A DNA stretch of 60,536 nt, filler included, from Pseudomonadota bacterium (GTDB lineage Bacteria; Pseudomonadota; Alphaproteobacteria; Paracaedibacterales; CAIOTO01), in the NCBI GenBank assembly GCA_040387495.1. It is 4 parts of 4 records of this genome, joined end to end, with 100 filler letters (N's around TTAATTAATTAA, not from the genome) between each part and the next. Parts side by side here need not be neighbours in the genome. Positions count along the whole stretch, not along the records: positions 25,526 to 41,693 come from JAZKDQ010000005.1; 3 more parts are not named here. One strand, written 5' to 3'. The position numbers and the translations under genes were made by a program. Positions 24,805-60,452 of the stretch are shown here, in pieces; the stretch's first letter is position 1, and every line of letters starts with the position of its first letter. Below the pieces are notes generated by a model. It saw only the letters and a program-made list of their open reading frames with translations, made no database searches and was not told the origin of the DNA.

Positions 24805-25811
24805 CTGACATATCACCAAATAGTGAACAAATAGTTAATGAGACTGAAGAGAAATCTCCAGAAGAGACTGTTGAAGAAGAGAAATCTCAAGAACTAACTG
24901 AAGAAGAACCAGCTGACGAAAAGTCAGATGATGCTGCTGATGACGAAAAATCAGATGATGCTGCTAATGACGAAAAATCCGATGATGCTACTGATGACGA
25001 AAAATCCGATGATGCTGCTGATGACGAAAAGTCAGATGATGCTGCTGATGAAGAAAAATCAGATGATGCTACTGATGACGAAAAGTCAGATGATGCTGCT
25101 GATGGTGATGAAAAATCAGATGATGCTGCTAATGACGAAAAATCCGATGATGCTACTGATGACGAAAAGTCAGATGGTGCTACTGATGAAGAAAAGTCAG
25201 ATGATGCTACTGATGACGAAAAGTCAGATGATGCTACTGATGACGAAAAGTCAGATGATGCTGCTGATGAAGAAAAGTCAGATGATGCTGCTGATGAAGA
25301 AAAGTCAGATGATGCTACTGATGACGAAAAGTCAGATGATGCCGCTGATGAAGAAAAATCCGATAATGCCGCTGATGAAGAAAAATCCGATGATGCAGCT
25401 GATGAAGAAAAATCCGATGATGCAGNNNNNNNNNNNNNNNNNNNNNNNNNNNNNNNNNNNNNNNNNNNNTTAATTAATTAANNNNNNNNNNNNNNNNNNN
25501 NNNNNNNNNNNNNNNNNNNNNNNNNTGCTGAAGAACCTGCTGCTGAAGAGCCTGCTGCTGAAGAACCTGCTGCTGAAGAATCTGCTGCTGAAGAATCTGC
25601 TGCTGAAGAATCTGCTGCTGAAGAGCCCAAGGAAGAAGCGAAAGCAGAGGAACCTAAGGAAGAGGCGAAAGCTGAAGAACCTGCTGCTGAAAAGAAAAAA
25701 GCTAAGGAAAAAATAGAAAAGCCAAAAGCAAAGCAAACGGCAAAGCAAAAAGAAAAATTAACGCAAAAAAAGAAATCTGAAACGAAAAAAGAAGTTGTAC
25801 CAGCTGAGTAA
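24804..25811 (+). repeat. Acidic low-complexity coding repeats (27-bp DDEKSDDAA units; 15-bp EE[P/S]AA units; Lys-rich end), spanning a gap
   Basis: Open frame ADISPNSEQIVNETEEK...(DDEKSDDAA)n to the gap; after the gap (EEPAA)n...KKEVVPAE* at 25809-25811. Confidence 0.8.
25426..25525. other. Artificial contig linker
   Basis: N-run with central TTAATTAATTAA. Confidence 0.98.
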
Positions 25812-25872
25812 GGCTTTGCATTTTTGATGTCAATCGTTACAATGCACTATTAAATAGTAAATATGTATTTCT

Positions 25873-26985
25873 ATGACACGCGCTCAACGACTAAAACTTA
25901 TTTATCTTGTTGCAGATGATCGTTACTTTTGCACACATCGATTGCCACTTGCAATTGCTGCAAAACGACAAAATTTTGATGTACATGTAATTTGTCCAAA
26001 GGGTGATTCATCAGAAAAAATAGTTCATGCTGGATTGACATTCCATCCGATCCCTTTTAATCGAAAAAGCTTAAATCCTTTTGACGGAATTAAAACGGTT
26101 TGGCGAATTTTCAAACTTTATAGGCAGATTAAGCCTGATTGTGTTCATCATGTAGCAATTAAGCCAGTCTTATTTGGCACCATTGCTGGGCGACTTGCAG
26201 GTGTGCCAAACATTATTAATGCTGTTGCTGGTTTGGGGCATGTTTTTGCTTCCCGTTCACGGTTGATTTTTCCATTACGAATGCTGATGTGTGTATTGCT
26301 TCGAACGTCTTGTGTAAAAATCATTGTTCAAAATCCAGAAGATCAGACCGAACTTGAATCACTTGCGCAAAAACCTGTTCACCTTATTTATGGAGCAGGA
26401 GTAGATACTGAACAATTCACTCCATCTGTTACATCGTTGCCTGGCAGTCCTGTTGTTATTACTCATGCCTCGCGTTTGCTTTGGTCAAAGGGTGTTGGGG
26501 AATTAGTCTCGGCTGCTCGTGTTCTTCGTAAACAAAGTCACTTAATTTGTGTGCAAATTGTGGGTGAACCAGATATGCAAAATCCAGATGCAATCCCTAT
26601 AGATACTTTGCAGGCTTGGCATGATGAAGGTGTTATTAAGTGGCTTGGATATCAATCAGATATAGCTGCTATTTATCAAAAAAGTCACATCGCTGTGCTT
26701 GCCAGCTATTATCGTGAAGGTATTCCTAAAACATTGATTGAAGCTGCGTCTGTGGGATTGCCAATTGTTACTACGGATATGCCAGGATGTCGAACTATTG
26801 TTGATCATGGTATAAATGGCTTATTAGTTGAGCCACGAGACGTTGTTGCGTTGACAGAGGCATTAGCAAGATTGATACGTGATCCAGAAATGCGGAGGTT
26901 ATATGGAGAAGCTGGCAGAACCGTTGTGTTAAAACAGTTTACTTCCACCATTATTTATGAACAAACGATAGCTTTATATAAGTAG
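25873..26985 (+). CDS. Glycosyltransferase family 4
   Basis: REGIPKTLIEAA, TTDMPGCR, NGLLV. Confidence 0.9.
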   Translation: MTRAQRLKLIYLVADDRYFCTHRLPLAIAAKRQNFDVHVICPKGDSSEKIVHAGLTFHPIPFNRKSLNPFDGIKTVWRIFKLYRQIKPDCVHHVAIKPVLFGTIAGRLAGVPNIINAVAGLGHVFASRSRLIFPLRMLMCVLLRTSCVKIIVQNPEDQTELESLAQKPVHLIYGAGVDTEQFTPSVTSLPGSPVVITHASRLLWSKGVGELVSAARVLRKQSHLICVQIVGEPDMQNPDAIPIDTLQAWHDEGVIKWLGYQSDIAAIYQKSHIAVLASYYREGIPKTLIEAASVGLPIVTTDMPGCRTIVDHGINGLLVEPRDVVALTEALARLIRDPEMRRLYGEAGRTVVLKQFTSTIIYEQTIALYK

Positions 26986-27010
26986 GGGGCATTTATCCCC
27001 CGTAACTCTG

Positions 27011-28804
27011 TTATACTGTTAACTCTTCCAATTGATCAATTAATCCTTCAATCATGGATAAACCCTTTGTCCAAAAATCAGAGTCAGTTGCATCTAAACC
27101 AAATGGCGCGAGTAGTTCTTTATGACACTTTGATCCACCAGCTTTGAGCAAATCAATATATTTCTCTTGAAAGCCGCTGGGGTTTTGTTGATATACAGCA
27201 AACAGGGAATTAACTAAACAATCGCCGAACGCGTATGCGTAAACATAAAATGGAGAATGGATGAAATGGGATATATATGCCCAGTATGTGCCAATCAATG
27301 GATCTATATGCACAGAATCACCAAGGGCTTCTTTTTGTGTTTCTAACCAAATGGTATTAATCGCATCAAGCGAAAGCTCACCATTTTTACGGCCATTATG
27401 GATTGCAACTTCAAATAAATAGAATGCTACTTGTCTGACAACTGTATTGAGCATATCTTCAATTTTGCCAGCAAGCATCTGACGTTTTTCGGCAGGTGTT
27501 TTAGCCTTCTTAAGTAAGCTTTGAAACGTGAGCATTTCACCAAAAACAGAAGCAGTTTCAGCGAGTGTCAATGGTGTGTCAGCAAGCAAACAACCTTGCT
27601 TAGCAGCCAATACTTGGTGAACGCCATGTCCTAACTCATGCGCAAGTGTCATTACGTCGCGCTTTTTACCATGGAAATTTAATAATATATATGGATGCGC
27701 TGATGGTACTGTGGGATGAGAAAATGCTCCAGAGGTTTTACCGTCAGTTGAAGGTACATCAATCCAATTTTTATCAAAAAAATCGCCTGCAATAGCTGCA
27801 ATGGTAGGGCTAAATTCATTATAGGCATCCATAACAATTTTGCGCGTTTCTAGCCACGTGAATTTTGTGTCATCTGTGTCTGGTAGAGGTGCATTGCGGT
27901 CCCAGTATTGAATAGATTGCACACCCATCATTTTTGCTTTCAGTGCATAATAGCGATGTGAAAGCTTTGGATAGCTTTGTTTGACTGCTGCGACAAGGGC
28001 ATCAACAACATCGGCTTCAACTTGATTTGCAAGATGACGTTCGTGCATTGGGGATGCATAAGCGCGCCACGTGTCTTCGATTTCTTTATCTTTAGCAAGC
28101 GTGTTTGTAATAAAAGCAAATAATGATCCCTTGCTTGATAACCCTTCGGCAAGTGCCATGGCTGCTTGGCGACGTTTTGCTGGGCTTGCATCTGACATAA
28201 GTTCACTCACACCTGATAAGGTTAGTGCATTACCATCTACCAGAAATGACATACCAGCAAGCGTTTCATCGTATAACCGATTGAGTGCACGTGATGAGGT
28301 AAGTGACTTTTCAAGAAATATTTTTTCAAGATCTGGACTTAATTGATGTGCTTTGAAGGAGCGAACTTGGTCAAAGTAAGGTCTGTAGCGTGCAAGTGCT
28401 GGTGATTCGAAAAATGCTGATTCTAGCCGTTCGCCTGTTATTTCATTTAGTTCAAGCGTGAAGAAAATAAAGTGACCACCTAAATTGGTAAGACGTTCTT
28501 GCGTTTGTTGATACATTAACAAAATATCTTGATCTTTGATGTTTTTGTAGTATCTTAGTCCAGCATAACTTGCAAGACGGCCAAAGCGTTCTTGAATAAC
28601 TTCGTACTGGGTTATAGCCTCTAGCAGATCGCTTGCAGACCAGCTTTCATTTTTGAATAAACCTTCGTATTTTTTTTGAAACGCGGCCGACTCTTCTTCA
28701 CCAATAGACCAATCCTGTGCAATAGCAGGATCTTTATCATCTGAATAAAGTGCGCTTAAATCCCATTCAGGGTAGTTTTCTGTGCCAAGTATATCATGTG
28801 TCAT
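27011..28804 (-). CDS. pepF: Oligoendopeptidase F (M3B)
   Basis: WDLSALY, TLAHELGHGVH, AETAS, FYVYAYAFG. Confidence 0.9.
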   Translation of the reverse strand: MTHDILGTENYPEWDLSALYSDDKDPAIAQDWSIGEEESAAFQKKYEGLFKNESWSASDLLEAITQYEVIQERFGRLASYAGLRYYKNIKDQDILLMYQQTQERLTNLGGHFIFFTLELNEITGERLESAFFESPALARYRPYFDQVRSFKAHQLSPDLEKIFLEKSLTSSRALNRLYDETLAGMSFLVDGNALTLSGVSELMSDASPAKRRQAAMALAEGLSSKGSLFAFITNTLAKDKEIEDTWRAYASPMHERHLANQVEADVVDALVAAVKQSYPKLSHRYYALKAKMMGVQSIQYWDRNAPLPDTDDTKFTWLETRKIVMDAYNEFSPTIAAIAGDFFDKNWIDVPSTDGKTSGAFSHPTVPSAHPYILLNFHGKKRDVMTLAHELGHGVHQVLAAKQGCLLADTPLTLAETASVFGEMLTFQSLLKKAKTPAEKRQMLAGKIEDMLNTVVRQVAFYLFEVAIHNGRKNGELSLDAINTIWLETQKEALGDSVHIDPLIGTYWAYISHFIHSPFYVYAYAFGDCLVNSLFAVYQQNPSGFQEKYIDLLKAGGSKCHKELLAPFGLDATDSDFWTKGLSMIEGLIDQLEELTV

Positions 28805-28934
28805 TGCTACAATTTTCCAATAGTTAAAACCACCAATACTTGTCATTGTCGGGCTTGATCCGGCAATCTAGATCCCCAGGGCAAGCCCGGGAATGACATA
28901 TGAGGTAGTTATATGAATTTAGATTAGTGTAGCA
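28805..28934. repeat. Palindromic MITE/REP-like element
   Basis: Core TGTCATTGTCGGGCTTG...CAAGCCCGGGAATGACA (28841-28898) inside outer TGCTACA...TGTAGCA inverted ends. Confidence 0.6.
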
Positions 28935-28961
28935 TGATCATCATTAACGGGGAATGGAGTT

Positions 28962-30209
28962 TTAAGCTGTTGCTGCTTTCATTTTTCCTAATTTGTAGAT
29001 AAAAAAGAGTAAGCCAAGTGAGGCCGTCGCAATGCATCCGCTTGCAACATACATCGTTGCAAGTGAAAAACAATCGGCAATCATGCCACCAAAAAAACCT
29101 GCAAGAAAAATAGAGCCAGCACTAAATAGATAAAAAATACCAAAGCCTGTGCCGCGTAAATCTGCTGGAACAAAGTCAGCAATAAGGGCTAAGAACATGC
29201 TTTCGGTGATACCCCTTTGAATACCCCAAACAGCAACACCAATCATTGCTACGGTAAAATTAGGCGCAAAGGCAAGTAATACATCGGCAACAACAAGGCA
29301 GAAACAACCAAGTGCTAAAATATAATGACGTGGAATTCGGTCAGAAAAACGACCGATCGGATAAGCAGTCAATGAATTCGCTGCATTATATGTAAGAACA
29401 ACCATGGGAACCCATTGCTTTGGAAGGTCGAAATTTATATTAGCATGGAGGCCAAGGAGTGATTCACTTACGCGTGCTAGCATAAAAACAGTAACAATAA
29501 GCATGAGGTACCAAAAGGGTTTTCCTAAGCGTGGCATATCACTTAAGTGCAAAGGATGCCGTTTTGGCTGTGTTTGATTTTCCATTTCCTCTGGCTTTAA
29601 TTTTGAATCTTTCACAAAAATAATCAAAATAATAAGTGCAATTACAGGAGGAATGCAGGCCATCCAAAAAATTTGTTCATAGTTATTTGATGTCCACCAC
29701 ATTGCAAGTACGGCAAGGGCACCCCCAATAACTGAACCTGCATTAGTAAGCGCTGTGCGAAGACCAAAACATTCACCTTTAATGTCTTGTGGTGACAAAT
29801 CGGCAACTAAGGCATCACGCGGTGTAGATTGCATGCCGTTACCAATACGTTCCAATACACGAGAAAAGAAAATAATTGCATAAGCCATGCCTACTGCAAA
29901 GAATGTCACTGAAAAAGCTAATATGGGGCGAGAAAATGTGGCCATACCAAAGCCAATAACCATAATGGTTTTTCGGCGTCTAAAATAGTCACTGATGATC
30001 CCAGAAAAAACTTTAATAATATAAGCAATACCATCAACAGTATGTTCAAGTGTCGATATCCATTGAATTCCAATACCTTGACCATGTAAAAAAATTCCTG
30101 ATAATGAAAAAACAAGTGCAGAGGAAATGTTCAGTAAACAGCTTGCAGTACCAATTGCCCAGATTGACAAAGGAATGGGTGTTTTTATTTTTTTTTCATT
30201 GTTTTTCAT
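28962..30209 (-). CDS. MFS transporter
   Basis: GIISDYFRRRK, PRDALVAD, RGTGFGIF; multiple TM segments. Confidence 0.88.
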   Translation of the reverse strand: MKNNEKKIKTPIPLSIWAIGTASCLLNISSALVFSLSGIFLHGQGIGIQWISTLEHTVDGIAYIIKVFSGIISDYFRRRKTIMVIGFGMATFSRPILAFSVTFFAVGMAYAIIFFSRVLERIGNGMQSTPRDALVADLSPQDIKGECFGLRTALTNAGSVIGGALAVLAMWWTSNNYEQIFWMACIPPVIALIILIIFVKDSKLKPEEMENQTQPKRHPLHLSDMPRLGKPFWYLMLIVTVFMLARVSESLLGLHANINFDLPKQWVPMVVLTYNAANSLTAYPIGRFSDRIPRHYILALGCFCLVVADVLLAFAPNFTVAMIGVAVWGIQRGITESMFLALIADFVPADLRGTGFGIFYLFSAGSIFLAGFFGGMIADCFSLATMYVASGCIATASLGLLFFIYKLGKMKAATA

Positions 30210-30308
30210 AAAATAGTCTAACCATTTCCAAAAAATTAACTTTACTCCGCTAAACTTACGTATAAGCGGTTGCTTAAAATATATTCAAATAAATACTAGG
30301 AGAACACG

Positions 30309-31091
30309 ATGTTCAAAGAAAAAACTGTTTTGATTACTGGGTCAACCAGCGGAATAGGTCTCGCTATTGCCGAAGTTTTTGCCACGCAAAACGCAAATAT
30401 AATACTCAATGGGGTAGAATCCATAAACGAAATTAACCCAATTTTGGAAGAAATGTCAAGAAAAACACAAGGGGTTGTGGTGTATGAAAAAGTAAACTTG
30501 GCTAAACCAGATGAAGTTGAAGCTATGATGACACGCATTCATCAGCAATTTGGTGCAATTGATATACTTATTAACAACGCATGCATTCAACATGTGAGTC
30601 CAATTGAGGCTTTCCCCATAGAAAAATGGGATTTTATTTTAGCGTTGGGTTTGTCGTCTGTATTCCATACGATTCGTTTAGCTTTGCCGCAGATGCGTGC
30701 AAAAGGGTGGGGACGTATTATTAATATAGCATCTGTGCATGGTCTGGTTGCATCGGCTGAAAAGGCGGCCTATGTTGCAGCGAAGCATGGTGTTGTGGGA
30801 CTCACTAAGGTGGTGGCACTTGAAACGGCACAAGATTCAATTACCTGTAATGCAATTTGTCCAGGGTGGGTGCTTACTCCGCTGGTTCAAAAGCAAATTG
30901 AACAACGCGCGATTGCAAAAGGTATGTCAGTTGCAGAAGCTGAACATGATTTATTGTCGGAAAAACAACCCTCTCTGGCATTTGTTAAACCAGAGGACTT
31001 GGCAGCATTGGCATTATTTCTATGCAAAGATGAGGCCGCCCAGATGACAGGCGGAGCTATTGCGATGGATGGTGGTTGGGTGAGTCGTTAG
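30309..31091 (+). CDS. bdhA: 3-hydroxybutyrate dehydrogenase (SDR)
   Basis: TGSTSGIG, ASVHGLVAS, YVAAKHG, CPGWVLTPLV, LLSEKQP. Confidence 0.9.
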   Translation: MFKEKTVLITGSTSGIGLAIAEVFATQNANIILNGVESINEINPILEEMSRKTQGVVVYEKVNLAKPDEVEAMMTRIHQQFGAIDILINNACIQHVSPIEAFPIEKWDFILALGLSSVFHTIRLALPQMRAKGWGRIINIASVHGLVASAEKAAYVAAKHGVVGLTKVVALETAQDSITCNAICPGWVLTPLVQKQIEQRAIAKGMSVAEAEHDLLSEKQPSLAFVKPEDLAALALFLCKDEAAQMTGGAIAMDGGWVSR

Positions 31092-31104
31092 TTATGTTGT
31101 TTTC

Positions 31105-32418
31105 TTATTGTGTGAGAGTATCTGCCAGATGAATTGTAGCAATTCTTAGATGAAGGGCATATTCATCAGGAATGTTATTTTTTATTGATTCTGTTACAGC
31201 TTCCTCAAATTCTTTTGGATGTGAGGCTTTGAGATCCTTATTGACCTCTTCTGCTTCTTCATGTGCTTTTACAAGCTTTAATTGAATATCAGATGGAACC
31301 CAAATATTTTGGAAAGAAGCAAAAGATATGCTGCCACATGGACAGTAAGTTAACGTTGTGTAAAATCCACCAAGGCCGCCATCGTGTGTAAACACAAGCT
31401 TATCATTAATCATAGTTTTTCCTATCCCATAACAGTAAAAGTGATCAGGCTTTGTTTCATCTAGGATCACGTAACCCTTAAGCATAATTTCCGTAAGTCC
31501 CGGTGTTAAAGAGATAGAACTATGAAGGCTACGATTCCAAATAAGAAGATCATCCACAGTTGAAACAATTCCACCTGCAGCACGTAGATAGCTATTATGC
31601 CAATAAGGCGAAATTTCAATTAATGGCGAGTCGCGTTCGATACCACATGTATAACCACGGGCAAGGTTAGGATAATCACCTGAATCTTTCATTGTTTTTC
31701 CAGTACCTTCGTCGGGCAAAAACGTACTAGTCATGCTTAAAGGTTTAAAAAAATGAACATCAAGATATTGACTGAATTTTATGCCGCTCAAACGTGCAAC
31801 AACTTCGCCGAGTAAAAAGTAACCAGAATTACAGTATTTAAATTTTGCACCTGGCTCAAACTTAGCGCGTTCGTTTTTAAATGTACTAATAAGTTCTGCT
31901 ACAGAAATTGGATTTCCTAAATTCTCTCTAAAACTTGGAACTTCTGTATATGACACAATCCCAGCTGTGTGGGTCAAAAGATGATGCAATGTGACGCGGT
32001 TCACCCATTCAGGCATGTCGCCCATCCATAGCGGATCCGTCGCAGGCAAATAATCAGATAGTGGTTTATGCAATGCCTCGCGTACTCCATCAACATTTTC
32101 GTGACGAGCATAAAGAACATGCAAAATCGCCGCAGCAGTGAATTGCTTGGTGACTGAACCTATAAAAAATTGTGTATCAGGTCTACATGGTTGTGCGGGA
32201 ATCGTTGAATTGTCTGCGATTCCAAACCCCTTTGCATAAATGGTTTTGTCACCCAAAGCCATAGCAGCAGCGCCATTTATTTTATGTGTTTCTTTAAATT
32301 TGTGAACTTTTTCTGTAATGAGAGCTGTTGTTATTTCTTCATTCTTTAGCGAGATATCTGTGGCGGAGGTTGAATGTGCGATAGTAGAAAAGAGTAATAA
32401 AAATGTAAAAAATTTCAT
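31105..32418 (-). CDS. Secreted serine hydrolase (beta-lactamase/PBP-like)
   Basis: Signal peptide; SVTK (SxxK), LLTHTAG, YCN, HDG. Confidence 0.88.
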   Translation of the reverse strand: MKFFTFLLLFSTIAHSTSATDISLKNEEITTALITEKVHKFKETHKINGAAAMALGDKTIYAKGFGIADNSTIPAQPCRPDTQFFIGSVTKQFTAAAILHVLYARHENVDGVREALHKPLSDYLPATDPLWMGDMPEWVNRVTLHHLLTHTAGIVSYTEVPSFRENLGNPISVAELISTFKNERAKFEPGAKFKYCNSGYFLLGEVVARLSGIKFSQYLDVHFFKPLSMTSTFLPDEGTGKTMKDSGDYPNLARGYTCGIERDSPLIEISPYWHNSYLRAAGGIVSTVDDLLIWNRSLHSSISLTPGLTEIMLKGYVILDETKPDHFYCYGIGKTMINDKLVFTHDGGLGGFYTTLTYCPCGSISFASFQNIWVPSDIQLKLVKAHEEAEEVNKDLKASHPKEFEEAVTESIKNNIPDEYALHLRIATIHLADTLTQ

Positions 32419-32652
32419 ATTTCAAGTCCTAGAGTATAAAGTTGTACGTATTTATATCTTACTTTATATAGCTCTTCAAGTTTAATTTGATCGTACAATA
32501 CCTTTAATTTGTGTGTTGCCAAGAGGTGATCCAGGCATCTCAAAGATAAAAGCTCAATAAAACGCTACATCACTGGGTCACCAGCCACGACATAGACTTG
32601 GACGTAGCCGAGAGTCCAGTGGGTCTACGAAAAAATAAATGTGAGATATATT

Positions 32653-32676
32653 ATCAAATTAACTTTAATTGCTATA
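32653..32676. mobile_element. Solo IS630-like terminal remnant
   Basis: ATCAAATTAACTTTAATTGCTATA resembles the IS630 end at 104-128. Confidence 0.45.
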
Positions 32677-32806
32677 GGTCGTAACATGTCTTTGATGAAA
32701 ATGAAAAAGCTGTAACGAGTAAGTCGCGTGTGGATCTTGTTTGTGTATTAAGAAATTGACTGTAAATGGTGGCATCCCAAATATCTGGCATAAAAAAAAC
32801 CTCTGG

Positions 32807-33667
32807 TTAATGCTGCTGTTTCATAATAGCGTCAACTAGCTTGGCTGCTTGTACAGATTCTTCAACATCATGCACACGAACAATTTGTGCACCCTTCATT
32901 ATACCGATTGTGAGTGCGGCAAGACTTCCTCCCAGGCGTTCATTAACGGGAGCATTTACCGTATACCCGATAAAAGATTTACGTGACGCGCCAAGCAAGA
33001 TTGGATAGCGTAATTTAGGTATTTCATGAAACCGTGCCATTATTTCAATGTTTTGCTCAACTGTTTTGCCAAAACCAATTCCTGGATCGAGGATGATTTT
33101 GGATGGATCAACGCCATTTTCAAGTGCGAATAATACTTGTTTATCCAGATCTCTGTAAATACATACGATAATATCTTCTGAGTCATCAATGTCTTTTTTG
33201 ATGTAGCGTCCTCCAAGTCTTGTTTTTTCAACTGTGCTAGCATTGAAAGAATGCATGATAATGATATAGCATTGATGCGTTGCTGCAACATGAACCATTT
33301 GGGCGTCAAGTAATAAGCCGCTGACATCATTGATAATGCATGCCCCGTGTTTGAGTGCTTCGTCAGCAACAATTGCTTTTGTTGTGTCTATAGAAATAGG
33401 AATATCAAAATTTTGATGGATAGCTTCTATAATGGGAATAACGCGGTCAAGCTCTTCTTGTAAGCTAACAGGCGTGGCGCCAGGTCTTGTGCTTTCGCCA
33501 CCTATATCTAAAATATGGCAACCGGTTTTTACAAATAATTCAGTTTGTTTAAGGGCTGAATCAATCGAAGTGCAAGCATATAATCCATCTCCCGAAAATG
33601 AATCTGGCGTAACATTAATAATGCCCATGATATGCGTATGACTTTTAAAATTAAAGAGTACAGTCAT
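32807..33667 (-). CDS. folP: Dihydropteroate synthase
   Basis: MGIINVTPDSFS, DIGGESTRPG, DPGIGFGK, SRKS, IVRVHDV. Confidence 0.96.
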   Translation of the reverse strand: MTVLFNFKSHTHIMGIINVTPDSFSGDGLYACTSIDSALKQTELFVKTGCHILDIGGESTRPGATPVSLQEELDRVIPIIEAIHQNFDIPISIDTTKAIVADEALKHGACIINDVSGLLLDAQMVHVAATHQCYIIIMHSFNASTVEKTRLGGRYIKKDIDDSEDIIVCIYRDLDKQVLFALENGVDPSKIILDPGIGFGKTVEQNIEIMARFHEIPKLRYPILLGASRKSFIGYTVNAPVNERLGGSLAALTIGIMKGAQIVRVHDVEESVQAAKLVDAIMKQQH

Positions 33668-33700
33668 TGCTATTTCAATTTATATATATGAGGGGAGATT

Positions 33701-33776
33701 TGGTGGGCCCTGAAGGATTCGAACCTTCGACCACCTGATTAAAAGTCAGATGCTCTACCAACTGAGCTAAGGGCCC
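33701..33776 (-). tRNA. tRNA-Lys(UUU)
   Basis: GGGCCCTTAGCTCAGTTGGTAGAGCATCTGACTTTTAATCAGGTGGTCGAAGGTTCGAATCCTTCAGGGCCCACCA; cloverleaf with encoded CCA. Confidence 0.98.
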
Positions 33777-34029
33777 TGATTTGTTATTCAGTTTCCCGAA
33801 TCAACCTGTACATTAATACAAAACAATTTGGCTTTCGTCAAGGATTTTTTATGGATTTCTGTAGGTTTTATTAAAAATGTAACAGTGTTGTTCATAATTT
33901 TCATTTTTTATGCAGCAGATAGAGAAAAATTGCTTGATGTCTAAGTCCCGATATGTTTCGATAGATTAATTAAGTGTTTTAATTAAATCTTAGCGATTTT
34001 TTTCGCTATTTCAGAAAGGGAATATATAT

Positions 34030-34878
34030 ATGAAAAAGATAATTACGTTGGCTGCTATGTTAGCTGCAGCTCCAATGTTTGTATTTGCAAGTGCACAAAA
34101 GAATGAAGTATCTATCAAAGTTGTGGGTAAGAATGAATCATTCACGACTATTGCCAATAAAAATGAACCACATACTGCGGTGCCAGTTATAAAAAATGAT
34201 AAAAATCATCATGATAATATAGCACATGATGCTGCAAAGAAAACCGTACAGAAAACACAAGCTGAATATGCAGCGGAACTTCAAAAAAGAATAGATGATG
34301 CTAAAGCTTTTATTGAAAAAAATAAAAGCTCAGCCCCTGCATTACAGTTTGAACAAGCGTCAATGAAAATTCGCGTCGCTGAGGAATGGTTGAAAGCGAT
34401 TAAATCATACAAAGACCCAATTACGCGTTATGTCCGTAGCTTTAATTATGGTATGAGCGAAGCGAAGTCGGCTGAAAATGACATGAAAGTTCGCAAAGCT
34501 GGAAAAGAAGTAACGGACGATTTCGTTAAAAAAGGGTTAGCTAAGTTATCAAAACAAAGTGAAGTATTGCTTGCTGAAAAGAAAAAATTTACATTTCATG
34601 ATGAAAATGACACATGTTTTAACACGATGCTAAAATCTTCGCTTGAATACATTACACTTGCTAATAAGCCTGAATCTAAAGCGAATTTCAAGCATCTCAC
34701 AAAACGTGCACGTAGATATTTGTCAGATGCAAGAAAGTTTTTGAAAGCACACAAAGCACTTAGCAATAAACGCGCAAAGCATGAAGTGAAGGTTGAAGTT
34801 AAACCAGAAATAAGAGCAGATGTTAAGGTTGCTCCAGCAACTCTTGGATCCTCTGCCGCATCCGTTTTTGTTAAATAA
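34030..34878 (+). CDS. Secreted Lys-rich helical hypothetical protein
   Basis: Signal peptide, RBS AAGGG, downstream terminator. Confidence 0.8.
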   Translation: MKKIITLAAMLAAAPMFVFASAQKNEVSIKVVGKNESFTTIANKNEPHTAVPVIKNDKNHHDNIAHDAAKKTVQKTQAEYAAELQKRIDDAKAFIEKNKSSAPALQFEQASMKIRVAEEWLKAIKSYKDPITRYVRSFNYGMSEAKSAENDMKVRKAGKEVTDDFVKKGLAKLSKQSEVLLAEKKKFTFHDENDTCFNTMLKSSLEYITLANKPESKANFKHLTKRARRYLSDARKFLKAHKALSNKRAKHEVKVEVKPEIRADVKVAPATLGSSAASVFVK

Positions 34879-34900
34879 TAAAAATATTTCAAACTAAATT

Positions 34901-34934
34901 AAAGGCGCATCTTTTAAGGTGTGCCTATTTTTTT
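34901..34934 (+). terminator. Intrinsic terminator
   Basis: AGGCGCATC...GGTGTGCCT stem plus T-run. Confidence 0.65.
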
Positions 34935-34967
34935 CTGTGTTTATGTAAATTTTCTAAGGTTATTGTG

Positions 34968-35467
34968 GGTTCTGTCGCAAATTTTTGAATAACTATAATT
35001 AGTCTCTTTCTTGAAATATAATTATGCTGCGAGAGCATAGAACTGCTCCCAAGCAGGCAGTGACCCTTTGATCATATTTTGTCCTTTCCGAAGCATGTGA
35101 TAAAGTTCAATTCCGGCAAGCGTGGCTTCTGCACACATAAAATTCTTAAAGCCCATCATGGGATTAGTAATGCGTTTGATCCCTCGATGATCTTGTTCAA
35201 TCATGTTATTGAGATATTTGACCTGACGAATTACAATCTGCTCCGTGTCAGTCAATTCTCGATTAACGTGTTGTATACCGGCCAAATTAGCGCCACTTTT
35301 ATCCATATTAACCTTTGAAGGAACCCCGCTACTCTTGATTGCTTTCTCGAAAAAAGTAAGCGCTGCCTTGGTGTCACGTGTTTTTGACAAATAGAAATCG
35401 ATTGTTTGGCCTTCTTTATCAACGGCGCGATAATAGTAAACCCATTCTCCTTTGACTTTAATGTAAG
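34968..35467 (-). mobile_element. IS6-family element copy A, 3' half only
   Basis: IR GGTTCTGTCGCAAA at 34968; transposase YIKVKG...YALAA; begins exactly at the intron 3' splice junction. Confidence 0.9.
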
Positions 35468-35488
35468 GGTGAGTAGACCGAGAGAATT
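35468..35488 (-). mobile_element. Group II intron 3'-terminal remnant (domain VI)
   Basis: Minus strand AATTCTCTCGGTCTACTCACC joined to exon CTTACATT; truncated by IS6 copy B. Confidence 0.75.
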
Positions 35489-36287
35489 GGCTCTGTCGCA
35501 AATTTTTGAGATTTTTTGATAAAGTAAGATGAATTGAATTTAGAAATAGTAATTTGCTATGAATTTCAAAGGTTCTCATTTTCCAAAAGATGTCATTTTA
35601 ATGTCAATGCGCTGGTACCTTGCGTATCCGTTAAGTTATCGACATGTTGAAGAATTGTTAGCAGAGCGTGGCCTAAGTGTTGATCATGCAACCGTTAATC
35701 GTTGGGTTGTTAAACATTCACCTACTCTTGAATCCAAATTTAGAAATACCAAGAAAGCGGTTGGTAAAAGTTGGCGGATGGATGAGACGTACATTAAAGT
35801 CAAAGGCGAATGGGTTTATTATTATCGTGCCGTTGATAAAGAAGGCCAAACAATTGATTTCTTTTTATCCAAAACACGTGACACCCAAGCAGCGCTTAAT
35901 TTCTTCAACAAAGCAATCAACAGCAGCGGACAACCAGAAAAGGTTAATATGGATAAAAGTGGCGCTAATTTGGCAAGTTTAAAACTCGTTAATAAGGAAT
36001 TACCTGACACGGAGCAAATTGTGATTCGTCAAGTGAAATACCTCAATAACATGATTGAACAAGATCATCGAGGGATCAAACGCATTACTAATCCCATGCT
36101 GGGGTTTAAGAATTTTCTTTGTGCAGAAGCCACGCTTGCCGGAATTGAACTTTACCACATGCTTAGGAAAGGACAAAATAAAGTCAAAGGAACATTGCCA
36201 ACATGGAAGCAGTTCTATGCTCTAGCAGTGTAATTATATTTCAAAGATGAGATTCATTATAACTGTTTGAGAATTTGCGACAAAACC
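35489..36287 (+). mobile_element. IS6-family element copy B, complete (799 bp)
   Basis: IRs GGCTCTGTCGCAAA and TTTGCGACAAAACC; no matching flanking direct repeat. Confidence 0.95.
35559..36233 (+). CDS. IS6-family DDE transposase
   Basis: WRMDETYIKVKG, YRAVD, DKSGAN, NNMIEQDHR. Confidence 0.95.
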   Translation: MNFKGSHFPKDVILMSMRWYLAYPLSYRHVEELLAERGLSVDHATVNRWVVKHSPTLESKFRNTKKAVGKSWRMDETYIKVKGEWVYYYRAVDKEGQTIDFFLSKTRDTQAALNFFNKAINSSGQPEKVNMDKSGANLASLKLVNKELPDTEQIVIRQVKYLNNMIEQDHRGIKRITNPMLGFKNFLCAEATLAGIELYHMLRKGQNKVKGTLPTWKQFYALAV

Positions 36288-37374
36288 TTGATTATTGCCA
36301 GCTACCAAGGTCATGAAGAGATAGTGCGTATGTTAATTGATAATGCTTCTAATCCTTTGTACAGATCGCCGACTGAACTTGGTGAAGGTACTGCCTTTCA
36401 TTATGCGCTTCAACAAGATCATCAAAGCATCAGCCAATATTTATATAACATTTCGGCAGAGAAAAAAGCCATTGAAACACAAAAAGATTTAAAGGATGCG
36501 GCTGAGTCGCTTTCAAACCTACACGAAACAATAGAAAGTCTTTCACAAAAAGTTGGCACGCTAGAGCAAAAAGATACAACGCAAAGGGAGCAATTGAATG
36601 CACTTGTTACAGAAACATTCTTCTTTGTGGAAGGTTTATTCGCTAAAAGAATCAAGGGACAAGGAAAGAGGTGCTTTCAAAGAACATCCAAGTGTAAAAG
36701 CCTTTTATGAAACGGTAGAGCGCCGTTTAATCCAACTTTTTCTAGCTTACAAAGTCCTCGATACTGGAATGATTCAACGAACAGGGACCAAATCTGATAC
36801 GCTTGCCACAAGTATAAATCTTCTTGGAACAGCTGTTTCGATACCATTTATATCATTGGTAACATCTGCTATTTCATCAAGCATTTTGTATTTAAACGAT
36901 CGTTCAGAAAATCGGCACATTCAATTCATAGCCAAGCTTGCCGGTAATATTACAACACTTGAAGAAGAAGCTGACACGGCAGTACGCTTACTAAGTCATA
37001 CCTATACAAATCAAATTCAGCATTTAACCGTCAACGGATCTACCAAGTTAGCCGAGTGCGCTGTGCTGCGCTTTCTTAAATATATGCATGGTAAACATGT
37101 TCACGATGGCCTTGCGCTGACACCTCAAATAATAAGCACTGTGGCTACTTTTAAAGTACACCTAGGATCAATCCCCTATACAGATAAAAAAATCGAAACA
37201 GTGCAGATCAAATCTACGAAATGGACTGATAAAGGTATTTTCCAAGATACAGGTATTGTCACACCCGATGAACGTTTCTTTATTTATCCAGGGTCAAACA
37301 AGTACAAACATTATCCCTTTCGAAATGGCACTGAATCAGACACAGATACATTCGGCTATATACATCTTTCTTAG
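36288..37374 (+). pseudogene. Ankyrin-repeat protein, 5'-truncated by IS6 and frameshifted near 36610
   Basis: LIIASYQGHEEIVRMLID and TAFHYALQQDHQSISQYL ankyrin repeats; coiled coil; continues in 36598..37374 frame. Confidence 0.7.
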
Positions 37375-37404
37375 CGTAATTACGCACTAAACAGGATTTA
37401 AAAA

Positions 37405-38145
37405 ATGAAACAATCATTCATCAGAAAAATTACAACGTGCCTCTTGTTAAGCGGAATGAACAACTTCTCTTGGTCTATGGAAAGTAGGTATAAAGTTGGT
37501 GATTGGGAAAATGAATCTATTAGCAGCCATGGTATTTCTATGGTTGCCTCGTCCATTGGCAACTCTACATTTAAAGAAACACGTTTGGTTGATATAAAAG
37601 ATCTACGAAAATGTTTTTTTAAAGGATGGCTAGAGATTACTGCTGATAACTTTGAATGTATGTTGCAGTATGCTGATTTGCATGAAACAGCTTTTAATAA
37701 TTATGACCGTGGGATTTTTATTAAACAGTGGAAGGCATCTTTAGGTGCAGAGCAATTATTAGATTTGCTCTTCAAATTCACGCATATCACTAAATTCAAA
37801 CTTGATGTTGTCTGGGATACTGAGAATGCAGATATAGCTGAAACCATCAGTCGAAGTGTCCAGTTCTTTCCAAGCCTTGTTGAATTAACAATAGCAAAGT
37901 GTCATTTAACAGACGATGGCATGAGTGATATCATGGAGTGCATTGAAAATCCTGCATCACTAAAGATTTTAGATATTAGGAAAAGTCCTTTGAGTGAAAC
38001 TATGTTGCCAAGAATTAGTGAATTCTTTGGCAGTTTGATTGATTTGAAAACTGATTTAGGAAAAGAGAATAGCAAAGTTGTTAGTTCCGTTGTTAGTAAT
38101 TCTGTCACTACATCTGTTGATGACGTTTTTGACAAAGGGATATGA
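37405..38145 (+). CDS. Secreted protein with leucine-rich repeats
   Basis: Signal-like N-terminus; LVELTIAKCHLTDDG and LKILDIRKSPL RI-like LRR units. Confidence 0.7.
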   Translation: MKQSFIRKITTCLLLSGMNNFSWSMESRYKVGDWENESISSHGISMVASSIGNSTFKETRLVDIKDLRKCFFKGWLEITADNFECMLQYADLHETAFNNYDRGIFIKQWKASLGAEQLLDLLFKFTHITKFKLDVVWDTENADIAETISRSVQFFPSLVELTIAKCHLTDDGMSDIMECIENPASLKILDIRKSPLSETMLPRISEFFGSLIDLKTDLGKENSKVVSSVVSNSVTTSVDDVFDKGI

Positions 38146-39776
38146 TGATTCAACTTGAGAAAGAGATTCAATCTCCTTATGAAGAGAATGAATCTAAACG
38201 AGCGACGTATCGACTCATGATAAAACTAAGCATGAAAGATTTATTGGCAGAGGTAGAACCTTATCAAAATATAATTGAATCGTATAAAGATTCTTTGCAA
38301 AAAGAATACAGACCCGTGCGTTTCTCTATACCGCTTCTGCTGCAGCCTGATCAATGGAAAGATAGGGTGATGTTAGAAGAAAATGAAGTTGAAACCTTGC
38401 ATGAAATTTATATGGTACTCGATAAGAATGAAAAATATTGTAAGTTTGAAGAAGATTGGAATCTTCAGGAAAGTAGAAAAAAATCTGCAAGGAGTGGCAC
38501 CCTTGATATCAGGCATAAGCTAACAACTCAACAGCATAAAGAAAATATGGTCACGCTGCTAGAACTTATTAGAAGAGTGATAAATGTAAATTCTCAAAAT
38601 GCAGTAAATGAGGTGACTACAGTTATGCCAGATCAAACGACTTTGCTTGAAATAGATACTGCAAATGCTGTCGCCAAAGCTCAATTTCAGAACTTACCAT
38701 TTTTTATTTCCCATGCTGATGAATTGCTACTTACAAAGCCAACGAATGTTAATGAGAAACAATCATTAATAGGTAAAAACACTATTAACTCGACTAAGAA
38801 ATCAAAAAAGAAGAATGCTGTTATTGATCTAGCCCAAGTAGTACCAACGGAAGAATGGTTGGCAGCTGAAAGAATTAGAAGACGGCCTGAGTTTGATCAG
38901 ATGCTTATAAAAACAGGCATTAATTTCACTCATGGATCACCTGCTATACAAGAAAAGCTTATTCCAATCTATGAAAATAAAACAATTTATAGACAGCAAC
39001 AGCAAGATGTAACAAGTAAATTGTTATCTGTTGAAACAGAAGATTTAACATTATCGCCAATGCATTTTTACCCTAGGGGATCTTCTGAAGGATTACCTTC
39101 TCACGTGTTAAATGCTTCCATGCTATGGGTTCTACCTACAGCTTTAAAAATGAATACTAAAATTAGACATCTTCATTTGAATGACTTTCAACTAGAGTCA
39201 AATCATTTTTCTGTGGGTGGCTATCGTGATGTTTGCAAAGAATCGTTAGCTGATGCTGTAACATGCAATCAGAATATCCAGACGCTCCACTTAACAAATA
39301 TTCACGTTGGCTGCGATTTGATTTCTCATTTTCTTGTGCCAGTCATAAATGGTAACAAATCAATTCATACAATTGAAGTACATAATGCAGATGTGCTGGG
39401 TAATAATAAGGAGGCATCTACACAAACAATTCATGGAATACAATCGCTTCAAAAAGGTGCTTTAGCTGCCGCATTATTAGCAAATATTCTTCAAAATGAT
39501 GAAACAATATTAAAACTTGGTATAGGTGGTAATGGAATTGGCGATGCAGGAGCAATATCCTTCGCACAAATGTTAAACACAAACCATACATTAGTTGAGC
39601 TTGAACTTAGTAATAATTGGATAGGAGATGTTGGAGTGGAGGCACTAGTGCATGCTCTTTATAAAAATAAAACTTTAAAAGTAATTAATCTTGGAGGTAA
39701 TGAAATTAATGAAAAAAATAAAAATGCAATTGAGAAAATGCGTGCTGTGAATACATTAGTCAAGGTTTTAATTTAA
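38142..39776 (+). CDS. Eukaryote-like (RI/NLR-type) LRR protein
   Basis: 28-aa units: LGIGGNGIGDAGAISFAQMLNTNHTLVELELSNNWIGDVGVEALVHALYKNKTLKVINLGGNEI. Confidence 0.82.
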   Translation: MMIQLEKEIQSPYEENESKRATYRLMIKLSMKDLLAEVEPYQNIIESYKDSLQKEYRPVRFSIPLLLQPDQWKDRVMLEENEVETLHEIYMVLDKNEKYCKFEEDWNLQESRKKSARSGTLDIRHKLTTQQHKENMVTLLELIRRVINVNSQNAVNEVTTVMPDQTTLLEIDTANAVAKAQFQNLPFFISHADELLLTKPTNVNEKQSLIGKNTINSTKKSKKKNAVIDLAQVVPTEEWLAAERIRRRPEFDQMLIKTGINFTHGSPAIQEKLIPIYENKTIYRQQQQDVTSKLLSVETEDLTLSPMHFYPRGSSEGLPSHVLNASMLWVLPTALKMNTKIRHLHLNDFQLESNHFSVGGYRDVCKESLADAVTCNQNIQTLHLTNIHVGCDLISHFLVPVINGNKSIHTIEVHNADVLGNNKEASTQTIHGIQSLQKGALAAALLANILQNDETILKLGIGGNGIGDAGAISFAQMLNTNHTLVELELSNNWIGDVGVEALVHALYKNKTLKVINLGGNEINEKNKNAIEKMRAVNTLVKVLI

Positions 39777-39817
39777 CTAAAAACGATAATAAAATTATTT
39801 AAACATTGTTTGTGAAG

Positions 39818-40020
39818 TGGACAATGCATACTTTCTCGCAATGGGTGGCTTCTCTCTTAGTGAAGTTGTAGATCTTTTGAAAGAAAACATTTATATACAC
39901 ACAGCATTACCAACACTAAATTCCCACACACAGATGTAGCTTAGTTCATCGAGGCTCTTAAAAGAAATAGTACGGTTCAAGAGATTTGGTCCGAGGGCAA
40001 CCCTAGCCATAAATAGGCTT
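39818..40020 (+). pseudogene. Degraded LRR gene remnant
   Basis: Fragments GGFSLSEVVDLLKENIYI and FIEALKRNSTVQEIWSEGNP, broken by stops. Confidence 0.4.
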
Positions 40021-40164
40021 ATATTTATGATATTAGTCTCATTCTTGCAGGTCGTAAATAAAGCAAGCTGGAGAACACTTATAGAGTTTTGATTAAGAAA
40101 AATGGCATAGGGCCATCTAGGCCAAAATACCCCTAATAAAGAAATAATTTAAATTAGAAAATGG

Positions 40165-40591
40165 CTATTTCTTAGCAATTCCCAATTTTTCCTTAATCAT
40201 ATCCAATTCCTCTGCATTGCATTTCTGTATCGATAACCCTTTAGATTCTACTAATTTGACCATCTCCTGTGCTTCCTCTAATGAGAGCTCGAATCGCCAA
40301 CCTGACTTACTATAGCTGTCATTGCTGTGTTGATATCGGTCTGTGTATGTAGGTTCTTGATAGCATCACTCTTCACAAACGTTTGTGCTTTAAGCGCTGG
40401 CATCACCCGATCGAGTACAAGCTTAGATGCAGCCAGATCACCTGCTAATGCGAGTTCTATCACCTTCTTTAAAATTGCCTCGGCATTGTCACTGCCAATT
40501 CGTTCCAAAAACACTTGGGCATTATTTTTACTACCCATTGGGCGCCTTTACCAAACTGGTTTCCTGGTTGAAACGCATGTGATTTTTGCAT
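40165..40591 (-). pseudogene. Phage-associated DUF5681-like protein with two frameshifts
   Basis: MQKSHAFQPGNQFGKG / RPMGSKNN...ALAGDLAASKLVLDRV / ELSLEEAQEMVKLVE...K*. Confidence 0.55.
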
Positions 40592-40700
40592 GAAAGAGGT
40601 TCCTTTTATAAGATTGCGTTTATCGTTAATTTCTTGTTATTAGACGCTGTTGCTGCGTTCAAATCGCATTCTGCAGGATCTTTAAACTATTAGAATTATA

Positions 40701-40998
40701 GGTTCTGTCGCAAAATTTTACGATTTTTGATAAAGTAAGATGAATTGAATTTTGAAACAGTGATTTGCTATGAATTTCAAAGGGTCTCATTTTCCAAAAG
40801 ATGTCATTTTAATGTCAATGCGCTGGTACATTGCGTATCCGTTAAGCTATAGACACGTGGAAGAATTATTAGCAGAGCGTGGCCTAAGTGTTGACCATGC
40901 AACCGTTAATCGTTGGGTTATTAAGCATTCACCTACGTTTGAATCCAAGTTTAGAAACACCAAGAAAGCGGTTGGTGAAAGTTGGCGGATGGATGAGA
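40701..40998 (+). mobile_element. IS6-family element copy C, 5' half, interrupted by group II intron
   Basis: IR at 40701; transposase from 40770 to WRMDE, then non-IS sequence. Confidence 0.92.
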
Positions 40999-41640
40999 GT
41001 GTGCCGTAGCAAGCTGTATGGAAGATGGAAGTAGGCCTTCCGTAGCCGGTTTACAGGAACAGGCTACAAACCACCATAAGCGGCTTTGTTTAAGAGGCAT
41101 TGTCGTGAGCGTTATGGAAAAGGCGCCACAAGGCGTCAGGTGCGGATCAAGAAGACGAACAAACGTGAACCACCGTACACGTGCCGAAAGACTCAAATGA
41201 TGTCAAAACTGGAGATGTTTCGTTACTCCAGGACAAAGATTAGCGGAAACCTATTTACTGGCTAGTTGGCATCCGGCATAGAGGTGGCGTGAGCTTGATC
41301 TAGGCTTTCATGCGGAACTACGGGAACCTGTCGCTTTGATGATAAGGGAGAAATTCAAGTGGATAACACCACAAGAATGAGAGTACCAAAGCAAAGCACA
41401 GGGACGGACAAGCCCGTAGGAGCGATGAAGTCATTGTAATAATGATGGAGCAAAGGGGCTTGGCTATTCAGTTGGAACGATTGAACAACTTTTTAATAAG
41501 AGGAGGAATCAATGGAACCAACAAAACCATTTAGCATTGATAAAATGCTTGTTTGGCAAGCATATCAAGACGTTAAACAAAAAGGAGGCGCTGCCGGAAT
41601 TGATGAAGAAACGATTAAAGATTTTGAGGAAAACCTAAAA
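40999..41640 (+). mobile_element. Group II intron 5' part (RmInt1-like, IIB/class D)
   Basis: GTGTG 5' end after GATGAGA; EBS1 stem-loop CTGGAG-ATGTTTCGTTA-CTCCAG (41209-41231); RT ORF start. Confidence 0.9.
41512..41640 (+). pseudogene. Intron-encoded reverse transcriptase/maturase N-terminus, interrupted
   Basis: RBS GAGGAGG; MEPTKPFSIDKMLVWQAYQDVKQKGGAAGIDEETIKDFEENLK (RT0 motif). Confidence 0.85.
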
Positions 41641-41693
41641 ACCTCAATTCGGGATTAAAAAATCAAACGAGATAGAAGGTTTTTTGGATTTAA
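41641..41693 (-). mobile_element. IS982-like element right end at contig edge
   Basis: Minus strand KSKKPSISFDFLIPN* with CCCGAATTGAGGT terminus; identical to 59147-59199. Confidence 0.7.
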
Positions 41694-59299: not shown

Positions 59300-59513
59300 A
59301 ACGATTAACGGTTGCATGGTCAACACTTAGGCCACGCTCTGCTAATAATTCTTCAACATGTCTATAGCTTAACGGATATGCAATGTACCAGCGCATTGAC
59401 ATTAGAATTACGTCTTTTGGAAAATGAGAACCTTTGAAATTCATAGCAAATCACTGTTTCAAAATTCTATTTATTCTACTTTAACAAAAATCTCTAAAAT
59501 TTGCGACAGAACC
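59300..59513 (-). mobile_element. IS6-family copy D, 5' part (cut by gap)
   Basis: IR ending 59513; MNFKGSHFPKDV... from 59444. Confidence 0.9.
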
Positions 59514-60189: not shown

Positions 60190-60452
60190 GGTTCTGTCGC
60201 AAATTTTAGAGATTTTTGTTAAACTAGAATAAATAGAATTTTGAAACAGTGATTTGCTATGAATTTCAAAGGGTCTCATTTTCCAAAAGATGTCATTTTA
60301 ATGTCAATGCGCTGGTACATTGCGTATCCGTTAAGCTATAGACAGGTGGAAGAATTATTAGCAGAGCGTGGCCTAAGTGTTGATCATGCAACCATTAATC
60401 GTTGGCTTGTTAAGCATTCACCCACACTTGAATTAGAATTTAGAAGCACTAA
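60190..60452 (+). mobile_element. IS6-family copy E, truncated 5' part
   Basis: IR at 60190; ATG 60259 MNFKGSHF...; similarity ends near 60452. Confidence 0.88.

Follow-up and report, generated by a model that had tools for sequence, protein, structure and literature searches.

The question raised by this locus is how pieces of a group II intron came to lie exactly at the codons for the first catalytic aspartate of an IS6-family transposase, and what became of them there. The stretch of DNA that was analysed (the window, 60,536 nt, from Pseudomonadota bacterium, GenBank assembly GCA_040387495.1) is made up of four contigs of a 1.66 Mb assembly of 20 contigs, joined through N/TTAATTAATTAA linkers, and is not one molecule; the whole intron/IS6 finding is confined to a single contig, C5 (window 25526-41693). 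Close relatives recovered by genome search were named Candidatus Paracaedibacteraceae and Ca. Paracaedibacter symbiosus, and the host is therefore of the small alphaproteobacterial endosymbiont type. A first-pass annotation had described one RmInt1-like intron with both of its junctions in the window. The junctions proved real, the single intron did not: they belong to two truncated fragments, a 642-nt 5' piece and a 21-nt 3' stub, which lie on opposite strands 5.5 kb apart. Very probably, a class D group II intron retrohomed into IS6 elements of this genome, and its copies were later destroyed and are now fossil fragments.

The interrupted IS6 transposase and the intron fragments

The features of the locus, in window coordinates, are:

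34968..35467, minus strand: IS6 copy A, 3' (exon 2) part only, with transposase codons from 35465 down to 35022 and the terminal inverted repeat at 34968
35468..35488, minus strand: intron 3' stub, 21 nt, AATTCTCTCGGTCTACTCACC, cut off by the directly adjoining left inverted repeat of copy B
35489..36287, plus strand: IS6 copy B, intact, with the transposase at 35559-36233 (224 aa)
40701..40998, plus strand: IS6 copy C, 5' (exon 1) part, with the left inverted repeat at 40701 and the transposase start at 40770
40999..41640, plus strand: intron 5' piece, 642 nt, class D-like group II intron, starting GTGTG and comprising the ribozyme sequence upstream of the open reading frame (ORF) and the first 43 codons of the reverse transcriptase (RT; 41512-41640)
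41209..41231, plus strand: hairpin with stem CTGGAG/CTCCAG and exon-binding site 1 (EBS1), TTTCGTT, in its loop at 41218-41224
41641..41693, plus strand: IS256-family terminus, the final 53 nt of a multi-copy element, which truncates the intron and runs up to the contig end

Copy B identifies the host element as a member of the IS6/IS26 family, by its matches to NF033587 transpos_IS6 (253.9 bits over profile positions 1-202, cut-off 125) and PF13610 (144.5 bits), its D-E-T at the first catalytic Asp, and terminal repeats of the form GG(C/T)TCTGTCGCAAA. The other two copies share this profile between them: copy C matched positions 1-74 (92.6 bits), its exon ending ...TGG CGG ATG GAT GAG A, and copy A matched positions 76-202 (144.3 bits), so that the missing residue is the Thr codon, split A/CT (here and below a slash within a sequence marks a splice junction). 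The break falls at residues D75-E76-T77 of the 224-aa transposase; a review of the IS6 family describes an E adjoining the first Asp of the DDE motif, and often a T after that (PMC6807381).

The junctions were placed by alignment of all IS6 copies of the assembly. Copy C follows the intact copies as far as ...ATGGATGAGA and then reads GTGTGCCGTAGC, giving the junction GATGAGA/GTGTG at 40998/40999. Copy A resumes at CTTACATTAAAGTC, preceded by AATTCTCTCGGTCTACTCACC (35488-35468), and thus begins on the minus strand after ...CTACTCACC/CTTACATT at 35468/35467. Copy B carries an empty homing site at 35787/35788 (GATGAGA at 35781-35787, then CG TAC ATT), and an IS6 copy in contig C15 is likewise uninterrupted (GATGAGA CG TAC ATT). 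All coordinates given in the first-pass annotation, that of the loop (41218-41224) included, are right. Two more partial IS6 5' ends lie at the start of C15 (window 59300-59510 and 60190-60445), one cut by the contig end, the other diverging after about 257 nt, before the homing site.

The 5' piece is recognisably a group II intron. Rfam model RF01999 (group-II-D1D4-2) matched at 41027-41141 with 111.3 bits over its full length (model positions 1-118; gathering score 36), this being its single match in the assembly, and the expected 5' end, GUGYG followed by domain I structure, is present as GTGTG at 40999. The RT N-terminus agrees at 27 of 43 residues with that of the closest full-length relative, a complete intron in genome G028. 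The stub belongs to the other end of such an intron: both it and the G028 intron end in the 12 nt GGTCTACTCACC, and this sequence occurs once in the window, at the stub, against an expectation of 0.11 with one mismatch allowed. It is the sole intron-like 3' stub in the assembly; two other matches to GAYGARAGTGYG, in contigs C3 and C4, were rejected as chance, there being no intron sequence after them. The model for catalytic domain V and branch-point domain VI (RF00029) had no match in the window, and a search of the whole assembly with this model and with RVT_1 gave no match and no further stubs. With neither RT nor domain V/VI in the assembly, these intron copies cannot splice.

At 41641 the intron meets CCTCAATTCGGGATTAAAAAA..., a terminus found at 10 junctions, mostly contig ends. 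The element is of the Mutator/IS256 type, as an internal copy in contig C11 encodes a transposase matching PF00872 Transposase_mut with 297.4 bits. The terminus stands at the ends of C1, C4, C6, C8, C10, C14 and C19 (both ends), as well as at C11:9068, making the element the main breaker of the assembly; a full consensus copy is absent from the 20 contigs, which suggests that short contigs were filtered out.

The span originally assigned to the intron (35461-41640) also takes in about 4.4 kb of unrelated ankyrin and leucine-rich repeat (LRR) genes between the IS copies. The region 36267-39776 holds an ankyrin-repeat gene fragment, two ORFs without family match and a 544-aa LRR_6 protein, genes that look like the eukaryote-like, effector-type genes known from intracellular symbionts.

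Target pairing, kinship and recurrence of the site

The loop proposed as EBS1 lies in a hairpin (41209-41231, -10.4 kcal/mol) that is homologous to the EBS1 hairpin of RmInt1: in an alignment of domain I, the window's CTGGAG-ATG-TTTCGTT-A-CTCCAG corresponds to CCAGGA-CCG-TTTCGTC-A-TCCTGG. It pairs with the intron-binding site (IBS1) in the exon at seven positions, three of them G.U, and the +1 base is C. Homing would be by base pairing of EBS1 (UUUCGUU) with the exon sequence GATGAGA, that is, with the codons for the first catalytic Asp and the next Glu and with the first base of Thr; because the pairing runs through this first base, the intron enters inside the Thr codon (A/CN).

The 642 nt of the window matched 13 of 61 related genomes (the present one included), the best being the full-length introns of G046 (79% nucleotide identity over the whole length) and G028 (78%). 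The G028 intron is complete, with 1837 nt and a 411-aa RT, and splits an IS6 transposase at ...TGG CGA GTT GAC GAA A/.../CG TAT GTC AAG, that is, W-R-V-D-E-[T]-Y-V-K-V-K-G. The 5' junction in G046 reads F-R-W-K-V-D-E, its exon of 35 aa being too short for a profile score. The IS6 profile is broken between positions 74 and 76 also in a Chloroflexi metagenome-assembled genome (MAG; locus L026), a Burkholderiales MAG (L093) and a complete Gloeocapsopsis dulcis plasmid; flanks on plasmids were read from the sequence because PLSDB annotation shows no interrupted transposases. In total, the same IS6 codon is occupied in at least seven other genomes or plasmids. Metagenome contigs were also scanned for GAYGARA directly before the 16 bases with which the intron starts, and this added 43 loci. 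Since this pattern requires the D-E codons, it selects exons that end in D-E, but it does not require IS6. An exon-1 frame of at least 30 aa was available in 38 of the 43, the five others being too short for testing, and 35 of these 38 matched transpos_IS6, all stopping at profile position 74 (the exceptions were L120, L121 and L128). The D-E-T of IS6 is a recurrent homing site among the relatives, and the proposal that this lineage exploits the first-Asp codons of IS6 is supported.

EBS1 and its target change together. Of 31 unique IS6 junctions, four without anchor sequence were dropped, leaving a non-redundant set of 27, in which all seven EBS1/IBS1 positions were paired in 24. At EBS1 position 2 versus exon position -2 the combinations were C-G (11), U-A (7), U.G (7), C.A (1) and G.G (1), and the hairpin stems covary as well. 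EBS1 and IBS1 therefore covary within IS6 sites, and they do so also between IS6 and IS3 sites (see below). These results bear on the idea that the match between loop and D-E-T is coincidental and the insertions ectopic, without site preference. The three G.U pairs needed by the window's EBS1 would favour it, but it is contradicted both by the recurrence of the same codon in other genomes, plasmids and metagenome junctions and by the changes of EBS1 along with the target, and we give it almost no credence. One metagenome locus, L138, carries an intron with the IS3-type EBS1 TGATGTT in an IS6 S-W-Y-V-D-E site, with two EBS1 positions unpaired; this may be an ectopic event or a recombinant.

Kinship with RmInt1, also proposed at the outset, is supported by the G028 relative. 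Its RT scored 516 bits (54% identity) against the intron-encoded protein (IEP) of RmInt1, versus 144.5 bits against the best solved group II RT (GsI-IIC). In a maximum likelihood tree of 31 rows it fell with RmInt1 in a 28-row clade (99/99 support), apart from the second intron RT of pSymA; the tree was built without labelled references of other classes, and so shows clustering with RmInt1 and not a full classification. Rows L084 and L091 have very long branches, are probably wrong ORFs, and are to be ignored; row L028 was labelled IS3 after its genome-mate L029, its own site lying outside a transposase. Class D IEPs are described, in passages of PMC4615759 and PMC3552965, as ending in LX3AX3PXLF[V/A]HW. 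The G028 RT ends in V-x3-A-x3-P-x-L-F-V-H-W (V-KYL-A-KTN-P-H-L-F-V-H-W), the class D motif with its first L replaced by V. The strict pattern was found in 15 of 46 distinct ORF tails, a figure that is not a membership rate, as many near-misses have the same motif and several rows are non-RT. No endonuclease domain was found in the G028 RT, its profile matches being RVT_1 and GIIM only.

History of the occupied copies

The favoured course of events is that a class D intron, RmInt1-like and endonuclease-less, would have retrohomed into IS6-family elements of a small endosymbiont genome, occupying at least one IS6 copy and probably two. An IS256-family element would have cut one intron copy after nt 642, and IS6 copy B would have left no more than the final 21 nt of the other, the likeliest mechanism being its insertion and a subsequent IS26-type adjacent deletion. 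An 8-bp target duplication was looked for in the flanks of copy B (AGAGAATT versus TTGATTAT) and none was found, nor is there one common to copies A and C, which fits an IS26-type rearrangement rather than a simple insertion. What is left can neither splice nor move, and both host IS6 copies are dead.

Metagenome runs were used to examine this layout. Run X1, which contained 0.85 of the sampled words, is probably the source sample of the assembly. One of its contigs (652 nt) covers 41016-41667 without a difference, which confirms that the intron/IS256 junction is real. From X2 and X3, two further samples taken in the same study, come contigs of 1241 and 1483 nt that match the intron up to 41640 with 11-21 differences and continue with GATAATCTTTATAAAATATGGAACAGAATG (D-N-L-Y-K-I-W-N-R-M), the expected continuation of the RT; their EBS1 is TCTCGTT, fully Watson-Crick at -2, and one of them begins inside IS6 exon 1, at 40907. 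In all four runs exon 1 was also found leading straight into CTTACATTAAAGTC..., that is, as empty sites. An untruncated version of the intron is therefore present in closely related strains, and occupancy is polymorphic.

The X2 and X3 contigs, together with the apparent loss of short contigs from the assembly, are what could be said for a living intron, which would only seem truncated because the assembly is fragmented or filtered, and whose splicing would control expression of the IS6 transposase. Several facts make this improbable: the X2 and X3 contigs are 2-3% divergent and so derive from related strains, not from this genome; the zero-difference X1 contig goes straight from the intron into the IS256-family end; the assembly contains no RT and no domain V; and the stub beside copy A is only 21 nt long. 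The earlier suggestion that IS6 expression from the occupied copies would depend on splicing is not supported for this window, both copies being fragments.

Whether one or two IS6 copies were occupied is less clear-cut. In contigs of X1, C-type exon 1 is immediately followed by A-type exon 2 (a loose end behind 40998, CTTACATTAAAGTCAAAGGAGAATGGG), so the C-type and A-type halves are of one IS6 variant, and the two fragments are only 5.5 kb apart and inverted, with an IS6 copy between them. This would suit a single occupied copy, filled by one homing event and later torn apart by IS6- and IS256-mediated inversion and deletion, of which one end would survive as the 5' piece at copy C and the other as the 3' stub at copy A. 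That reading, which seems unlikely though less so than a living intron, is countered by a second 5' junction in X1, in which C-type exon 1 and intron nt 1-46/47 are followed by a copy-B-type IS6 right end, with a depth of 10.9 versus 9.6 for the copy that runs on. The depth over the first 47 or so intron nt is about double, pointing to two loci with an intron 5' end, and the lack of a common target duplication also speaks against a single copy. The second junction lies in a 99-nt contig (window 40947-41045) of single-copy depth, in which the IS6 right end is inverted; taken with the 21-nt stub that flanks copy B at its other end, it would be consistent with an occupied IS6 in which copy B had taken the place of the intron interior.

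Several points weigh against the favoured history of two occupied and later destroyed copies. The window keeps only 43 RT codons, so its placement in class D depends on relatives. A search for EBS2 and EBS3, by eye and in the alignment with RmInt1, gave no register with consistent pairing to exon positions -8 to -27. Copies A and C, read by eye, have no common 8-bp target duplication, so that a common origin is neither proven nor excluded. X1, as the probable source sample, does not provide independent data, and its junction of intron nt 46/47 with the IS6 right end is absent from the assembly, so the layout around copy B may be collapsed or misjoined. Finally, the smallest contig of the assembly is 4.2 kb, and a 1-2 kb piece with the remaining intron could have been filtered out; the absence of an RT from the assembly is therefore not proof of its absence from the organism.

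Related introns, their targets and comparison with RmInt1

The closest RT relatives are not restricted to IS6. A subclade of 11 rows (100/99 support) also holds introns in IS3-family genes, at W-x-x-D-I-[T]-Y, with the exon ending GACATCA/C at IS3 profile positions 223/225 and EBS1 UGAUGUU; their hosts are a Legionellales MAG, Planctomycetota MAGs, a single-amplified genome and many Acinetobacter plasmids. On the RT tree the IS6 label requires four changes, at least three of which are forced by well-supported branches. It appears that, within one tight RT clade, no fewer than three switches of target between IS6 and IS3 came about by alteration of only the middle two or three EBS1 bases (U-YUC-GUU for IS6, U-GAU-GUU for IS3). 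The bases on either side, with which the Asp and Thr codons are read, are unchanged. At the DDE sites (D-E-T and D-I-T, in IS6, IS630 and IS3) the introns always split the codon that follows in phase 1. Other relatives were found in IS66 (Chlamydiae, profile positions 220/229).

An Acidobacteriota MAG (L027-L067) contains about 40 near-identical copies of a related intron, mostly in an IS1380-family gene at G-F-I-V-[T]-N (TTCATCGTCA/CC), with many more at non-transposase sites ending in GAC(A/G)TCA-like sequence; this intron looks to be in an active colonisation phase. A multi-copy sub-lineage in Ca. Paracaedibacter symbiosus and a Bacillota clade have their sites right behind the Y-A-D-D codons of other RT genes (R-Y-A-D-D/x, phase 1), at the following loci:

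Y-A-D-D-sited introns: L003 2736-2760; L015, L020, L021 (G046); L077, L078, L080, L082, L083

One copy of this type is nested in an IS6-homing intron, forming a twintron. Methanosarcina acetivorans has group II introns whose homing targets are RT genes belonging to related introns, and the Y-A-D-D sub-lineage (G046 and several Bacillota genomes) fits that pattern, which is a feature of the relatives and not of the window intron. More distant relatives (L096-L098, L087 and L092) occupy sites at F-(D/N)-F-L-G-(Y/F)-[T] of RT genes, at G-N-C-Y-D-N-[A]-C-I-E-S-F, a motif called IS3-like by eye only, and at another conserved transposase-like motif.

RmInt1-like introns may then form a guild that homes on catalytic-motif codons of other mobile elements, namely D-E-T (IS6, IS630), D-I-T (IS3) and the Y-A-D-D of RTs, so that conserved catalytic codons would serve as portable homing sites across IS families and phyla; we find this generalisation about as easy to doubt as to accept. 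IS6/IS26 elements are major movers of resistance genes. If true, an intron lineage able to inactivate IS6 at the catalytic Asp, and to move among IS6, IS3 and IS630 by small changes of its guide, would amount to a natural RNA-guided targeting of transposases, and would help to explain the persistence of endonuclease-less introns across phyla. For this genome itself the finding is of little weight, a fossil record of past mobile-element warfare in an IS-ridden endosymbiont.

What is new is the target family, IS6; the element is of a known kind, introns within transposase genes being known already, and the case is a fairly ordinary one of a parasite homing into a parasite. A literature search that covered few subscription journals found neither IS6 as an intron host nor the recurrence of the first-Asp site across IS6, IS3 and IS630. 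Among reviews of the IS6 family, PMC6807381 has no occurrence of 'intron', and the search listing for PMC7986276 none of 'group II intron'. Other class D introns share the habit of living in mobile elements, including Sr.md.I1, Pr.ae.I3, Pr.vi.I1 and Zu.pr.I1, reported from genes for transposases or integrases, and RmInt2, which occupies the inverted repeats of ISRm17; the passages of PMC4238363 and PMC4615759 that deal with them do not name IS6 as a host or relate the site to the DDE motif.

The nearest known system is RmInt1 of Sinorhizobium meliloti (class D/IIB3), which lives in ISRm2011-2. According to PMC4238363, ligated transposase mRNA amounts to less than 1% in the case of RmInt1. It uses the same IBS1, as the first-pass annotation stated: passages of PMC4075523 give its EBS1 as UUUC+GUC and its IBS1 as GAT+GAGA, with C at +1, and in pSymA (NC_003037.1), read directly, it lies in CTC GTT TTC ATC GAT GAG A/...CTACTCACC/CC TGG ACG AAG, or L-V-F-I-D-E-[T]-W-T-K. 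The window intron differs in its target family (IS6, not IS630), in the RT of its nearest relative, which is only 54% identical, in lacking about 40 nt at its 5' end that are present in RmInt1, and in being a dead fragment. In other respects the likeness is close. Like the G028 relative, RmInt1 has no endonuclease domain and carries the class D C-terminal motif; its 3' end, CTACTCACC, is identical to that of the window stub, with a C run across the splice site, a feature of class D introns taken up by the Toro group (PMC4238363); and its EBS1 lies in a homologous hairpin and is one base off (UUUCGUU in the window, UUUCGUC in RmInt1). Both have the identical IBS1, GATGAGA, and C at +1, and both are inserted in the gene of a DDE transposase, at the D-E-T that begins with the first catalytic Asp, where they interrupt the Thr codon in phase 1.

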